Origin: Anaerolineae bacterium
GTDB lineage: Bacteria; Chloroflexota; Anaerolineae; B4-G1; SLSP01
Length of the DNA: 64,000 nt
NCBI GenBank assembly: GCA_034437215.1
Contig: DAOTVC010000106.1
Coordinates: 30,369 to 94,368 of the forward strand
Direction: 5' to 3'
Positions 2,369 to 63,904 of the stretch are shown here, in pieces. Position 1 is the first letter of the stretch. Each line of letters starts with the position of its first letter. Made by a program: the position numbers and the translations under genes. The notes under the pieces are model-generated. The model was given only the letters and a program-made list of their open reading frames with translations. It did not search any database and was not told the origin of the DNA.

Positions 2369-3268
2369 CTACTGCAGATCCTCGACGTCCATGCCCGAGG
2401 CCTGCAGCACCTGGCGGAAGGGGTCATAGAACTCGTCCCCTGCCTCGACCAGACCGGCCCACTGGTAGGCGGTGTTCAGCGCCTCCGCGCCCTCTTCCGT
2501 CTCGGCGACCGCGAGCAGACCGTTCACGATGCGCTCCTGAAGCTCCTCGTCCATCCCGGGGATGAACTGGACGCCGTCGTTGGGAATGTCCGTGGTCACG
2601 CCGACGACCACAACCTGCTCCATCACATCGGGGCTTTCCTCTTCCAGGCGGGTGCGAGCATCCACGTAGGTTGCACCGGCATCGCAGTCGCCGTTGTAGA
2701 CGGCGGCGACGACAGCATCGTGGCTGCCGGCATCAACGATCTCCGCCAGATCGGTATCGGTGTTGATCCCCGCCGCGCGCATGGTGAGCATGGGGATGAT
2801 CCAGCCGCTGGTGGAGAGGGGGTCGGGCCGGCAGAAGGTCGCTCCTGCCAGATCCTCGACGCTGGTGATGCCGCTATCGGCCCGGGCGATGATCTGCCCG
2901 TTGTAGGTGGGGCTGCCGAAGCGTACGGAGACCAGCTCGGCCTCGATGCCGCAGGTCTCGTTGGCCAGGACGTAGGCGAAAGTTGCCAGCGAGCCCATGT
3001 GGGCCTCGGGTGGGTCGGCGCACATCGCCTCGATAACGCCGGCGTACTCGGTGGCCACGTTGGTCTCGAAGAAGAGCCCTGTCTCCTCCTGTAGGAGAGT
3101 GGCGACATCTTCTGCACCCGTTGCCACCCGTTCCATCTCCCCTGAGGGAACGAAGGACCAGATGATGGGATTCTCCTCAGTGCCAAGTTCGGCCTCCCGC
3201 TGGCAGGCGCTCAACAGGAGCGCCGACAGCAACAGCAGCCCGACGATCACCAACAGACGCTTTTTCAT
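2369..3268 (-). CDS. phnD: Phosphonate ABC transporter substrate-binding lipoprotein
   Basis: Lipoprotein signal MKKRLLVIVGLLLLSALLLSAC with a lipobox. Periplasmic-binding-protein-like sequence. Adjacent to phnC and phnE. Confidence 0.7.
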   Translation of the reverse strand: MKKRLLVIVGLLLLSALLLSACQREAELGTEENPIIWSFVPSGEMERVATGAEDVATLLQEETGLFFETNVATEYAGVIEAMCADPPEAHMGSLATFAYVLANETCGIEAELVSVRFGSPTYNGQIIARADSGITSVEDLAGATFCRPDPLSTSGWIIPMLTMRAAGINTDTDLAEIVDAGSHDAVVAAVYNGDCDAGATYVDARTRLEEESPDVMEQVVVVGVTTDIPNDGVQFIPGMDEELQERIVNGLLAVAETEEGAEALNTAYQWAGLVEAGDEFYDPFRQVLQASGMDVEDLQ

Positions 3269-13916: not shown

Positions 13917-13937
13917 TATTATCACAAATGGGTCTGT

Positions 13938-13966
13938 TTCAACAAATTGGCTTCCCGCGTTATAAT
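13938..13966 (+). promoter_or_regulatory. Sigma70-like promoter (TTCAAC, 17 bp spacer, TATAAT) for the ccm operon
   Basis: Read directly: ttcaacaaattggcttcccgcgttataat, about 30 nt upstream of ccmE. The -10 lies in the loop of a CCCGC/GCGGG inverted repeat. Confidence 0.4.
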
Positions 13967-19483: not shown

Positions 19484-20170
19484 ATGAAAAACGAGAGAGG
19501 GTTCGGGCCCGTCCTCATCGCCCTGGCGGCGGTCGCCTTTCTGGCGGCCCTGGGCATGGTCTTCTACTACGCGCCCCGCGAGGCGACGATGGGGGAGGTG
19601 CAGCGCATCTTCTACTTCCACGTGGCCTCGGCGTGGGTGGGCTTCTTCGGCTTCTTCGTCACCTTCGTGGGGAGCGCGGGCTACCTCCTGAGCGGGCGGC
19701 GCCCGTGGGACGTCCTGGCTCTCTCCTCGGCAGAGGTGGGGCTAGTCTTCATCACCATGACGCTGCTCACCGGCATGCTCTGGGCGCGCCCCGTCTGGGG
19801 CACCTACTGGACCTGGGAGCCGCGCCTGACCATCTCGGCGGTGCAGTGGCTCATCTACGTGGCCTACGTCATGGTGCGGGGTTCCGTGGAGAGCCGGGAG
19901 CGGAGCGCGCGCTTCGCCGCCGTCTACGGCATCGCCGCCTTCGTCACCGTCCCCCTCTCCTGGTTCGCCATACGCTGGTGGCGGACCATCCACCCGCAGA
20001 TCATCGGCGGCGGGGAGATGGCCCTCACCCCGCAGATGCTCCACACCCTCTTCGCCTCCATCGGCGCCTTCACCCTCCTCTACGCCGCCTTCCTCCTCTA
20101 CCGCGTGCGCCTGGAGCGCGCCCGGGACCGCTTGGCGGCGCTGCGGGGGCGGCGGGGTCGTCGGGGATGA
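19484..20170 (+). CDS. ccmC: Heme exporter protein CcmC
   Basis: Trp-rich WWD motif WGTYWTWEPRLT. Multi-TM. Confidence 0.75.
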   Translation: MKNERGFGPVLIALAAVAFLAALGMVFYYAPREATMGEVQRIFYFHVASAWVGFFGFFVTFVGSAGYLLSGRRPWDVLALSSAEVGLVFITMTLLTGMLWARPVWGTYWTWEPRLTISAVQWLIYVAYVMVRGSVESRERSARFAAVYGIAAFVTVPLSWFAIRWWRTIHPQIIGGGEMALTPQMLHTLFASIGAFTLLYAAFLLYRVRLERARDRLAALRGRRGRRG

Positions 20171-20209
20171 GGGATTGGGGACTGGGGATTGGGGATTGGG
20201 GATCAGGGG
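20101..20209 (+). repeat. Extended G-tract run ending in a (GGGGATT/GGGGACT)n array
   Basis: Read directly: gggggcggcggggtcgtcggggatgagggattggggactggggattggggattggggatcagggg. It overlaps the ccmC 3' end and stop. The complementary CCCTGATCCCT repeat occurs twice at 20294..20327, so a long-range inverted arrangement exists. Confidence 0.5.
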
Positions 20210-20353
20210 CCCTTTCTACTTCCCGATTACTATGTCCTGCCAACACTGGCGCCGAGCGGGTTTAATGACGGGGTCGGAGTGATATACCATGACGCTATTG
20301 CACTCCCTGATCCCTCTTCTCTCTTCCCTGATCCCTATCTTTTAGGAGGTTCC

Positions 20354-52869: not shown

Positions 52870-53010
52870 ATAACGAGAATCCTTACTCCTCACGAGGACG
52901 GTGCGCAGGCGCCGTCCTCGTTTCGCGTCCTCAGGTGAGAGCCTTCCACGGTAACAGAGCTGACTTCGCAGGTGGGCAGGTAAGGCAGGCGGAGTATAAT
53001 GGTGATACCA

Positions 53011-53290
53011 ATATCGCTTGGGTGTGTTTCAAAAGTTGGCTCTACTGAAATAACTCTATTTCACCACGGAGGACACAGAGAACACTGAGAAAATCATGGA
53101 GATTCTTATGAAAGTTAAACCTAAAGTGCATTTCGTAGAGTTTAACATCAAAAAATCTCCGTGGTCTCCGTGGTAAGAGATCTTTTTTCAGCGGAGTCAA
53201 AGTTATGAGCTATCATGGCTGAAACGTCAGGCGTGAAACGGAGGGCTTCACGCTTTACGCTTCACGTTTCACGCTGCGGTTCACTTCTCA
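53011..53290. repeat. Decayed copy of the GTGAAACG-core element seen at 59820: left end intact, about 170 bp AT-rich internal insertion, right terminal repeat deleted
   Basis: Read directly. Left end ttgggtgtgtttcaa. Core gctgaaacgtcaggcgtgaaacg...cacgtttcacgc is collinear with 59866..59925. The junction ggtt|cac lacks the 30-nt right-end segment present at 59.9 kb. Confidence 0.45.
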
Positions 53291-54466: not shown

Positions 54467-54498
54467 GAACCGTTCTCACGATGGCTCTTTTTGGTATA

Positions 54499-54577
54499 CC
54501 GTATTGCGTATTCCGTATTGCGTACTGTGTGTCTGGTGAACAGCGCGACTACGCGACTATCTGACTGCCCGACTATC
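54499..54577. promoter_or_regulatory. Tandem repeat 2x CCGTATTGCGTAYT, followed by four CGACTA(T/C)C-like direct repeats
   Basis: Read directly: ccgtattgcgtattccgtattgcgtact ... gcgactacgcgactatctgactgcccgactatc. Lies immediately upstream of the M20 peptidase RBS. Confidence 0.35.
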
Positions 54578-58943: not shown

Positions 58944-59816
58944 ATGGCTAAGAGTTCAGACTACAAGAGCGGACACGTCATCACCTGGTGCCCCGGTTGC
59001 GGTAACTTTGCCATTCTCAACGCCGTGAAGCGGGCCCTCCAAGACCGGGGGATCGCGCCCCACGAGATCATCGTCGCCACGGGCATCGGCTGCGGGAGCA
59101 AGCTGCACCACTACATGACCATCAACGGCATCCACACCCTCCACGGGCGCCCCGTGCCTGTCGCGCAGGGGGCCAAGTTGGCCAATCATGCCATGAAGGT
59201 GGCGGTCATTCACGGTGACGGCGACGGCTACGGTGAGGGGCTGGGCCACTTCGCCCACGTCACCCGCCGCAACCCCGGCATCACGGAGATCGTGCAGAAC
59301 AACAAGATCTACGGGCTGACGAAGGGCCAGTACTCGCCGACCAGTGACCGTGGCAAGCGCACGCCTACCTCTCCCGAAGGGGTGATCGAGTATGGCGTGC
59401 AGCCGCTGGCTCTGGCCATCACCCACGGTGCGACCTTCGTCGCCCGCGGTTACTCCGGCGATCTCAAAGAGCTCCAGTGGCTCATCGGGGAGGCGATGGA
59501 GCACCACGGCTACGCCCTGGTGGACGTGCTGCAGCCCTGCGTCACCTTCAACAGCGAGCGGGCCTACGACTTCTACAACGAACGGGTCTACAAGCTGGAG
59601 GACGAGGAGGGCTATGACCCCGCCGACCGTGCCGCGGCGTGGCAGAAGGCTCAGGAGTGGGGCGAGCGCATCCCCACGGGCATCTTCTACCGTGTCGATC
59701 CCATCCCCACCTACGAAGATCAGCTTCCGGCCCTGAAGGAGCGGCCGCTCGTCGAGCAGCCGCTGGAGAAGCTCACGGCGGAGGAGATCGAGCTCCTGCT
59801 GGACGAACTGCGCTAG
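58944..59816 (+). CDS. korB: 2-oxoacid:ferredoxin oxidoreductase beta subunit (TPP-binding)
   Basis: WCPGCGNF Cys motif. TPP-binding GDGDGYGEG. Confidence 0.85.
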   Translation: MAKSSDYKSGHVITWCPGCGNFAILNAVKRALQDRGIAPHEIIVATGIGCGSKLHHYMTINGIHTLHGRPVPVAQGAKLANHAMKVAVIHGDGDGYGEGLGHFAHVTRRNPGITEIVQNNKIYGLTKGQYSPTSDRGKRTPTSPEGVIEYGVQPLALAITHGATFVARGYSGDLKELQWLIGEAMEHHGYALVDVLQPCVTFNSERAYDFYNERVYKLEDEEGYDPADRAAAWQKAQEWGERIPTGIFYRVDPIPTYEDQLPALKERPLVEQPLEKLTAEEIELLLDELR

Positions 59817-59819
59817 CCA

Positions 59820-59958
59820 AATTCAGTTGGGTGTGTTTCAATCCAGTTGTGAGCTATCCGTAGCTGAAACGTAAAGCGTGAAACGTGAGGGCCTCACGGT
59901 TTACGTTTCACGTTTCACGCCTCGGTTTAACTCAAGTGAAACACACCCAATTCAGTTC
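59820..59958. mobile_element. MITE-like / REP-doublet element: about 14-bp terminal inverted repeats TTGGGTGTGTTTCA/TGAAACACACCCAA, flanked by an ATTCAGT direct repeat, with internal GTGAAACG palindromes
   Basis: Read directly: aattcagttgggtgtgtttca...gtgaaacgtgagggcctcacggtttacgtttcacgtttcacgc...tgaaacacacccaattcagtt. No ORF. Sits 4 nt after the korB stop. Confidence 0.55.
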
Positions 59959-60042
59959 ACCCTCTCGGCGCAACGTTCTCCCTCCTTGCGGGGGGAGAGC
60001 GTTGCGCCTCTTGTTGGGTTGGGACTCGCGGTGGATGTCAGG

Positions 60043-60147
60043 CAAGATGCCTGTTCTAGATTCGCGAGCGCTCCTAACCCAGGGCGCCGGATGCTCCCGA
60101 TAGGTCTCCGGCACAGCAAGATGCCTGTTCTAGATTCGCGAGCGCTC

Positions 60148-60154
<7 letters not shown>
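60043..60154. repeat. Two exact 38-bp direct repeats (CAAGATGCCTGTTCTAGATTCGCGAGCGCTCCTAACCC) separated by a 36-bp spacer
   Basis: Read directly. Copy 1 is 60043..60080 and copy 2 is 60117..60154. Copy 2 overlaps the stop codon of the minus-strand S9 peptidase gene. Confidence 0.5.
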
Positions 60155-63724: not shown

Positions 63725-63781
63725 GGTTATCCTCCTTTCAAAAACTGGTGAGCAGTGAGAGGTGAACGGAGAGAAAGGCTC

Positions 63782-63813
63782 AGGGATTAGGGAGCCGGGA
63801 CTGGGGATTAGGG
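63782..63813 (+). repeat. G-rich GGGATTAGGG-type repeat (same family as 13897 and 20163), followed by a CT-rich TTCTCAC tract
   Basis: Read directly: cagggattagggagccgggactggggattaggg, then ...ctctctctcctctcttctcacttctgacttctcac. Confidence 0.4.
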
Positions 63814-63904
63814 CTTAACACCGCAGCCTTGCTCCTCACACCGGGCCTCTCACGAGTGTCACCTCTCTCTCCTCTCTTCTCACTTCTGACTTCTCACTAC
63901 TCCG

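Follow-up and report, generated by a model that had tools for sequence, protein, structure and literature searches.

The 120-bp non-coding segment at positions 59829–59948 of the 64,000-nt stretch of DNA analysed here (the window) is very probably a non-autonomous transposon (MITE) of the ISKra4 family, a reading to which we assign a probability of about 0.9. This assignment draws on the anatomy of the element itself, on ends and target duplications that recur throughout a family of related elements, on the sharing of those ends with transposase-bearing insertion sequences (ISs), and on a relative in which the corresponding site is empty. The initial annotation had described an intact MITE just after the korB stop codon, bounded by terminal inverted repeats and an apparent target-site duplication. 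That core description is borne out, as related elements share the ends and the relative has an empty site; its suggestions of a partner transposase and of a role in ending transcription fared less well.

Anatomy of the element and its relatives in the window

The inverted repeats of the element begin with GGGTGTGTTTCA and extend for about 21 nt, enclosing a subfamily-specific interior (Table 1). The 14-mer TTGGGTGTGTTTCA at 59827–59840 has its exact reverse complement at 59937–59950, giving a perfect 14-nt inverted repeat, and it finds four matches in the window at up to two mismatches versus 0.07 expected from shuffles. The inverted repeats first proposed are therein present, but their outermost TT/AA pair is not part of the element, whose true ends are GGG...CCC and whose boundaries lie 2 nt inside those proposed earlier. 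In the comparison of family members this outer TT/AA is assigned to the duplicated target, because the bases directly outside GGG/CCC vary among related elements, those before GGG differing among about 20 of them. The direct repeat ATTCAGT reported on both flanks is likewise there (59821–59827 and 59950–59956), though as part of a longer, perfect duplication of AATTCAGTT on the two sides of the element, so that the full duplication is 9 bp, not 7 nt. Ends that failed to coincide with the proposed repeats had been named at the outset as grounds for abandoning the reading; in the related copies, ends and repeats coincide.

In the centre of the element lie two imperfect hairpin arms, 59865–59890 and 59892–59917, built of GTGAAAC(G) heptamers. 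The 144-nt stretch has a predicted fold of −64.5 kcal/mol on the plus strand (z = −9.0 versus shuffles) and of −59.8 kcal/mol on the minus strand (z = −6.3), and the heptamer hairpin together with the plus-strand fold upholds the earlier remark on internal palindromes and extensive secondary structure. Across the element, G+C falls from about 0.65–0.70 to 0.52. The 120 bp have no coding capacity, and no transposase similarity was found in or near them. Rfam returned no match at its gathering threshold and, at a lenient threshold, only far-sub-threshold matches to miRNA-like hairpins.

Table 1. Coordinates of the MITE and neighbouring features in the window, and of full-length insertion sequences with the same ends (L-numbered rows, positions within each locus)
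Feature	Positions	Strand	Remarks
Left target-site duplication copy	59820–59828	.	AATTCAGTT; same 9-mer on the other flank; fits R-A-W-T-S-A-W-T-Y with central C
Left terminal inverted repeat	59829–59849	+	GGGTGTGTTTCAATCCAGTTG; invariant core 59829–59840
Interior, non-coding	59850–59927	+	Subfamily-specific TGAGCTATCC box and imperfect GTGAAAC(G) heptamer hairpin
Right terminal inverted repeat	59928–59948	-	Minus-strand reading GGGTGTGTTTCACTTGAGTTA; agrees with family consensus
Right target-site duplication copy	59949–59957	.	AATTCAGTT
Degenerate, rearranged relative of the same subfamily	53020–53285	+	Left inverted repeat, extra inverted-repeat module, homologous heptamer hairpin
Possible solo end remnant	13929–13952	+	TGGGTCTGTTTCAACAAATTGGCT; 2 mismatches in 14-mer; likeness runs on into TTGGCT
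korB-like 2-oxoacid:ferredoxin oxidoreductase beta subunit	58944–59816	+	ORF; Pfam TPP_enzyme_C PF02775 and PFO_beta_C PF12367
Native intrinsic-terminator-like hairpin of kor operon	59967–60015	+	19-pair stem, 13 G-C pairs, loop TTGC, tail TCTTGTT
Full-length IS, L020	185–1817		1633 bp
Full-length IS, L034	1593–3184		1592 bp
Full-length IS, L042	1612–3187		1576 bp
Full-length IS, L045	5903–7584		1682 bp

The window contains, besides this one intact copy, a second that is degenerate and what may be a solo end. The degenerate copy carries an extra module at 53063–53174, itself a separate inverted repeat with 19-nt arms, and a heptamer hairpin at 53220–53274; its right inverted repeat and a target duplication are both absent. 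Homology between the two hairpins (53218–53274 versus 59863–59920) reaches 89.7% identity over 58 nt, within window region 53205–53280. This copy immediately precedes an aminotransferase gene, whose ribosome-binding site and start codon (53316) follow it directly. A TATAAT box stands at 52996–53001, about 18 nt before the left end of the copy, and the copy may lie within the 5′ leader of that gene. The solo end resembles, with low confidence, the left end of the degenerate copy. An ISKra4 transposase is not encoded in the 64-kb window, as judged by tblastn with three transposases (best E = 0.03).

The GTGAAAC unit of the MITE core also recurs in a heptamer hairpin at 2281–2326 that is devoid of transposon ends. 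More broadly, tandem arrays of heptamers abound in the intergenic DNA of the window, in many cases as inverted sets that face each other, at 2281–2326, at 20163–20203 with 20304–20336, at 54494–54524, and at 63752–63814 with 63859–63902. Their units are CGTGAAA (×3.4) with TTCACGT (×2.4), GGGGATT (×5.9) facing TCCCTCA (×4.7), CGTATTG (×3.6), and GGGATTA-type repeats facing TCACTTC (×6.3). These arrays recall the STRR heptamers of cyanobacteria.

The locus itself is found in identical form in the MAG GCA_046541445.1 (L001) and in a Logan contig of SRR19844289 (L002). The latter ends exactly 30 nt past the TT preceding GGG, which is where an assembler with k = 31, the value we take Logan to use, would halt on entering a repeat; this is suggestive, and only suggestive, of a repeat-induced assembly break. 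A look-up of where the Logan assembly resumes beyond the element found no record for the downstream S9 peptidase.

Related elements, their targets and their transposase

A scan of the genome collection with the pattern TTGGGTGTGTTTCAMTYSAG produced seven loci, in two Anaerolineae MAGs, in Candidatus Aquidulcis (Limnocylindria), at three contig ends of one Armatimonadota MAG, and on one Pseudomonas contig. The Pseudomonas match is probably a product of chance: about nine chance matches are expected for this pattern, and its high-G+C flanks are unlike those of the other matches. A metagenome scan with GGGTGTGTTTCACTTGAGT, from which the leading TT was dropped to locate the true element end, produced 33 loci. 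About 20 further short elements with the same 12-nt termini were thereby found in Chloroflexota and Armatimonadota MAGs and metagenomes, and de-duplication gave a set of 19 short elements of 89–436 bp, the window's included. Because the query itself selects one end of every retrieved element, it is the opposite end and the flanks that constitute independent evidence. Over 44 ends of 22 elements, among them ends not selected by the search pattern, the first 12 nt, GGGTGTGTTTCA, are nearly invariant, with G at positions 1–3 in 43–44 of the 44; the consensus that follows is YYYGWGTT-R. The flanks carry 9-bp duplications that are perfect in 13 of the 19 short elements and match at 8/9 positions in three more.

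These 16 perfect or near-perfect duplications (L006, L010, L011, L014, L017–L019, L021, L024, L026, L030, L032, L037, L038, L040, and the window) conform to a palindromic consensus, R-A-W-T-S-A-W-T-Y. The central base is G or C in 15 of the 16, and A/T makes up 82% of the remaining eight positions; the G+C of the elements themselves is mostly 0.5–0.66. The window target, AATT-C-AGTT, fits this consensus. Such a preference was not found stated for ISKra4 elements in Guerillot et al. 2014 (PMC3942029), and the consensus is a small new descriptive result, drawn from a small sample (n = 16).

From one unrelated locus to another, the same ends enclose interiors that are not related to each other. 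A complete 124-bp element (L006, 2610–2733) encloses a different heptamer hairpin between the same ends and is flanked by the repeat AAATCATTT, and an element from an unrelated locus in another metagenome (L013) belongs to the window element's own subfamily, with its TGAGCTATCC box and GTGAAAC hairpin. The heptamer hairpins differ among same-ended MITEs of different organisms, the units being ACGTCAA in L005 (~2945–3010), GTGTTGC/GTATTGC in L006, and GTGAAAC in the window (59865–59917), and CGT recurs every 7 nt in each. Other subfamilies have a GC-rich hairpin, ccccctctcccgcgcacgggagaggggg, in place of heptamers; a further same-ended MITE in this comparison lies at locus L027 (~530–640). Compared side by side, the MITE interiors look modular and host-specific. 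A 436-bp non-autonomous derivative (L040, 1018–1453) with a perfect 9-bp duplication, AAATCAATA, falls in size between the ~100-bp MITEs and the 1.6-kb ISs, and the subterminal sequence of one of its ends is that of the Armatimonadota MAG contig ends L004 and L007.

The ends GGGTGTGTTTCA and YYYGWGTT-R are common to four distinct full-length ISs (Table 1) and to four assembled copies of a fifth (L046–L049). The IS proteins are 480–517 aa long (482–517 aa in the four distinct ISs) and score 267–281 bits on NCBIfam NF033572 (ISKra4 family transposase), for which the cut-off is 205 bits; their other matches are only weak, to the related ISLre2 and ISH6 models, and no IS1 or IS256 match was found for the proteins of the full-length elements recovered with these ends. 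The transposase family is large, with 4122 proteins at E ≤ 1e-20 among the 8000 candidates scored. Many of these matches lie on contigs of 1.6–2 kb, about IS-sized, and one source record names its protein ‘ISKra4 family transposase [Chloroflexota bacterium]’.

Among the full-length ISs, L045 has a perfect 9-bp duplication, AAATCATTC. Matching flanking repeats are absent in L020, L034, and L042, that is, in three of the four distinct full-length ISs, and in all four assembled copies of the fifth. The unmatched flanks are best explained by chimeric metagenome assembly across IS copies, because the right flank of L046 (5928–5936) is identical to the left flank of L047 (416–424), both reading AGATCAATT and joined to opposite IS ends. 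IS and MITE repeats of this kind disturb metagenome assemblies, and many contigs end within some 20–140 nt of a repeat end, including L004, L007, L009, L012, L022, and L031; some break off inside the repeat. The longest contig of P0176 and the MITE-bearing L014 share a length of 11770, and an IS and a MITE were therefore suspected to reside on one contig; BLAST showed the two contigs to be different.

The korB 3′ region and alternative readings

The korB-like gene, whose Pfam domains were read on the identical gene in L001, ends in a TAG stop at 59814–59816, three bases before the duplicated target. Its best named homologues are Chloroflexota/Anaerolineae MAG proteins of 66–69% identity, named 2-oxoglutarate ferredoxin oxidoreductase subunit beta; Chloroflexota is the probable phylum of the host. 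A locus from a JGI metagenome (3300037830; L043) encodes a KorB that is 92% identical, and its gene arrangement is that of the window: korA-korB with an S9 peptidase gene converging on them. This locus is an empty site: the stop codon is followed by 11 nt and then directly by CACCCT... and the conserved terminator hairpin. L043 reads TAG-tcaatctggat-CACCCTTGCGGTGCAACGCTCTCCCTCC...GGAGGGCGTTGCACC-TTTTGAT, and the window reads TAG-cca-[AATTCAGTT-MITE-AATTCAGTT]-CACCCTCTCGGCGCAACGTTCTCCCTCC...GAGAGCGTTGCGCC-TCTTGTT.

The GC-rich hairpin and its T-run are thus conserved in the MITE-free relative, and in the window this hairpin starts 19 nt downstream of the MITE. Because L043 keeps the downstream hairpin and T-run without any MITE, the comparison of the two loci identifies the MITE as an insertion that separates the korB stop codon from the native terminator, not as the terminator itself. 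The proposal that the element terminates transcription consequently finds no support: its full stem is followed by AATTCAGTTCACC and no T-run, and the G+C-rich stem-loop with a succeeding T-run that defines a Rho-independent terminator is not found in the element, whereas the hairpin with TCTTGTT 19 nt downstream has both parts and persists in the relative. For annotation, the correction is that the hairpin directly after korB is parasitic DNA and the operon terminator is the next hairpin. In the interval from that terminator to where the convergent S9 peptidase gene ends, the 39-nt sequence GCAAGATGCCTGTTCTAGATTCGCGAGCGCTCCTAACCC is repeated perfectly in direct orientation at 60042–60080 and 60116–60154, with a 74-nt spacing; L043 has only loosely similar, single-copy sequence at this position, and the repeat is probably a local 74-bp tandem duplication.

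A broader form of the host-function argument would regard the whole segment as a structured RNA or korB transcription terminator evolved by the host, not as mobile DNA. It can appeal to the very stable fold (−64.5 kcal/mol, z = −9), to the position 3 nt after the stop codon, and to a weak internal candidate, a hairpin at 59884–59898 followed by GTTTACGTTT, that a loose consensus scan flagged as terminator-like. The segment is nonetheless absent at the orthologous site of a relative with a 92%-identical KorB, which keeps its downstream GC hairpin and T-run; the full stem has no T-run, no Rfam family comes near threshold, and the same ends surround unrelated interiors at unrelated loci. We consider this reading very improbable. 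A softer variant, compatible with the MITE assignment, is that the element is a MITE by origin and has since been co-opted, its 3′-UTR hairpin shielding the kor mRNA from 3′ exonucleases or providing an RNase III site. The element is probably co-transcribed as a long 3′-UTR hairpin, because its insertion point lies 3 nt past the korB stop codon but still before the native terminator of the operon, and an effect of that hairpin on the kor mRNA is possible. Its location inside the probable transcript, between stop codon and terminator, and the very stable sense-strand fold would suit co-option; there is no sign of selection, however, and the relative L043 manages without the element, so that co-option appears unlikely, if clearly less so than a purely host-derived origin.

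Other mobile-element affiliations have to be weighed against the ISKra4 assignment as well. The initial annotation had called the element REP-like and pointed to RAYT (an IS200/IS605-like Y1 transposase) or to an IS630/Tc1-like enzyme as its partner; the same-ended full-length elements instead encode ISKra4-family transposases. An extragenic palindrome of the REP/BIME type spread by RAYT would, like the window element, be intergenic, strongly palindromic, and located just after a stop codon. According to PMC3733652, however, REPs are palindromes of 20–40 bp with GTAG or CGTC at one end, make no target duplication, and depend on a Y1 transposase. The window element is 120 bp long and starts with GGGT, 9-bp duplications are present in 16 of the 19 short elements, and its ends are those of ISs with DDE transposases. 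This affiliation is refuted because of the duplications and of the ends common with ISKra4-type ISs, and we regard what chance it retains as negligible.

Descent from another DDE family, whether IS630/Tc1-mariner, IS1, or IS256, is also highly unlikely, if a shade more conceivable than the REP/BIME origin. Elements of the IS630/Tc1-mariner group duplicate TA only, in conflict with the 9-bp duplications found across the family. IS1 elements have GGnnnTG ends, 8–9 bp repeats, and the InsAB′ transposase, and IS256 likewise makes 8–9 bp duplications (ISfinder tables). GGGTGTG accordingly fits the IS1 end rule, and a 9-bp duplication fits both IS1 and IS256. Against this, the full-length elements recovered with these ends all encode proteins of the ISKra4 family that exceed the curated cut-off; an IS1-family lead, which the ends and the 8–9 bp repeats fitted superficially, was dropped once the full-length partners matched ISKra4.

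Proposed transposition and comparison with known systems

As a MITE of the ISKra4 family, the element would be mobilised in trans. Bereft of coding capacity, it would keep only the ~21-nt inverted repeats that are recognised by the transposase of full-length ISs, and an ISKra4-family (Mutator-like DDE) transposase encoded elsewhere would bind both ends. The element would then be excised or copied, probably via a circular intermediate of the kind reported for TnGBS and ISLre2 (PMC3942029), and inserted at cuts with a 9-bp stagger, in a target that is AT-rich and palindromic around a central G/C (here AATT-C-AGTT); repair of the staggered cuts would leave the 9-bp duplication. The transposition chemistry in this scheme is presumed by analogy with IS256, ISLre2, and TnGBS.

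A bolder proposal is that the short elements make up a superfamily of ISKra4-derived MITEs, so far undescribed, that spans two phyla, Chloroflexota (Anaerolineae and Limnocylindria) and Armatimonadota, and is marked by hyper-conserved 12-nt termini, a strict palindromic target, and interchangeable hairpin modules. Some of these modules consist of heptamer arrays particular to their host, in which CGT recurs at 7-nt intervals, and others are GC-rich, REP-like hairpins. No description of ISKra4-derived or Chloroflexota MITEs was found in the literature searched. We advance the superfamily tentatively and lean against it at present, while granting it better prospects than co-option; if it were real, either a hairpin would be mechanistically required between the ends, or MITEs would repeatedly capture and spread the intergenic hairpin repeats of their hosts. 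Independently of this proposal, GGGTGTGTTTCA ends, a 9-bp duplication, and R-A-W-T-S-A-W-T-Y supply a clean signature by which MITEs of this Mutator-like IS family, itself little studied, can be searched for in phyla with few cultured members, and the target consensus and modular hairpin interiors add modestly, and in a testable way, to the knowledge of ISKra4-type transposition. The element itself is ordinary selfish DNA, and no general concept is changed by it.

Among known systems, the closest are the ISKra4-group ISs, which belong to the prokaryotic Mutator-like transposases as clade p-MULT 4 (Guerillot et al. 2014, PMC3942029). In Mutator-like prokaryotic transposons the inverted repeats measure 18–39 bp and have a conserved C at the terminus, and the direct repeats are 8 or 9 bp long (PMC3942029). 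Within the ISKra4 group, the inverted repeats of ISAcas3 and ISAcce1 end in ...CCC and are accompanied by a 9-bp direct repeat, and ISAzba1-group elements have ends in ...CTC and no direct repeat (PMC3942029 supplementary table). Judged by its sequence, the window element has each of the published ISKra4-group traits, namely the inverted repeats, the terminal C, and the 9-bp repeat; it shares the GGG...CCC termini and 9-bp direct repeats of these ISs, and the ISs with its ends score above the NF033572 cut-off. It differs from them in being only 120 bp long without a transposase gene and in having a heptamer-hairpin interior unrelated to IS interiors. For some ISKra4-group members, oriented insertion upstream of sigma-A promoters has been reported (PMC3942029). 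Promoter targeting was considered for the window element too and set aside: no promoter-like site was found around it, its site lies between convergent genes, and, unlike in those members, promoter-proximal oriented insertion is not evident there.

With REP/BIME sequences the element has in common that it is an intergenic palindromic repeat, of a type often located just after stop codons, and it departs from them in size, end motif, target duplication, and partner enzyme. Bacterial MITEs, such as the Correia elements of Neisseria and the cyanobacterial Nezha, offer a nearer parallel. Like them, the window element is short and non-coding, bears the inverted repeats of a parental IS and a target duplication, is intergenic with strong hairpin potential, and differs in presence or absence between relatives; unlike Correia and Nezha, its putative parental family is the Mutator-like ISKra4, with a 9-bp duplication, and its hosts are Chloroflexota and Armatimonadota. 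A more distant kinship extends to the eukaryotic MULEs and their MITE derivatives, which employ a related transposase superfamily and typically make 8–9 bp duplications (PMC3942029). The present elements differ from MULEs in their prokaryotic hosts and much shorter inverted repeats, the relation between the two being as stated in PMC3942029.
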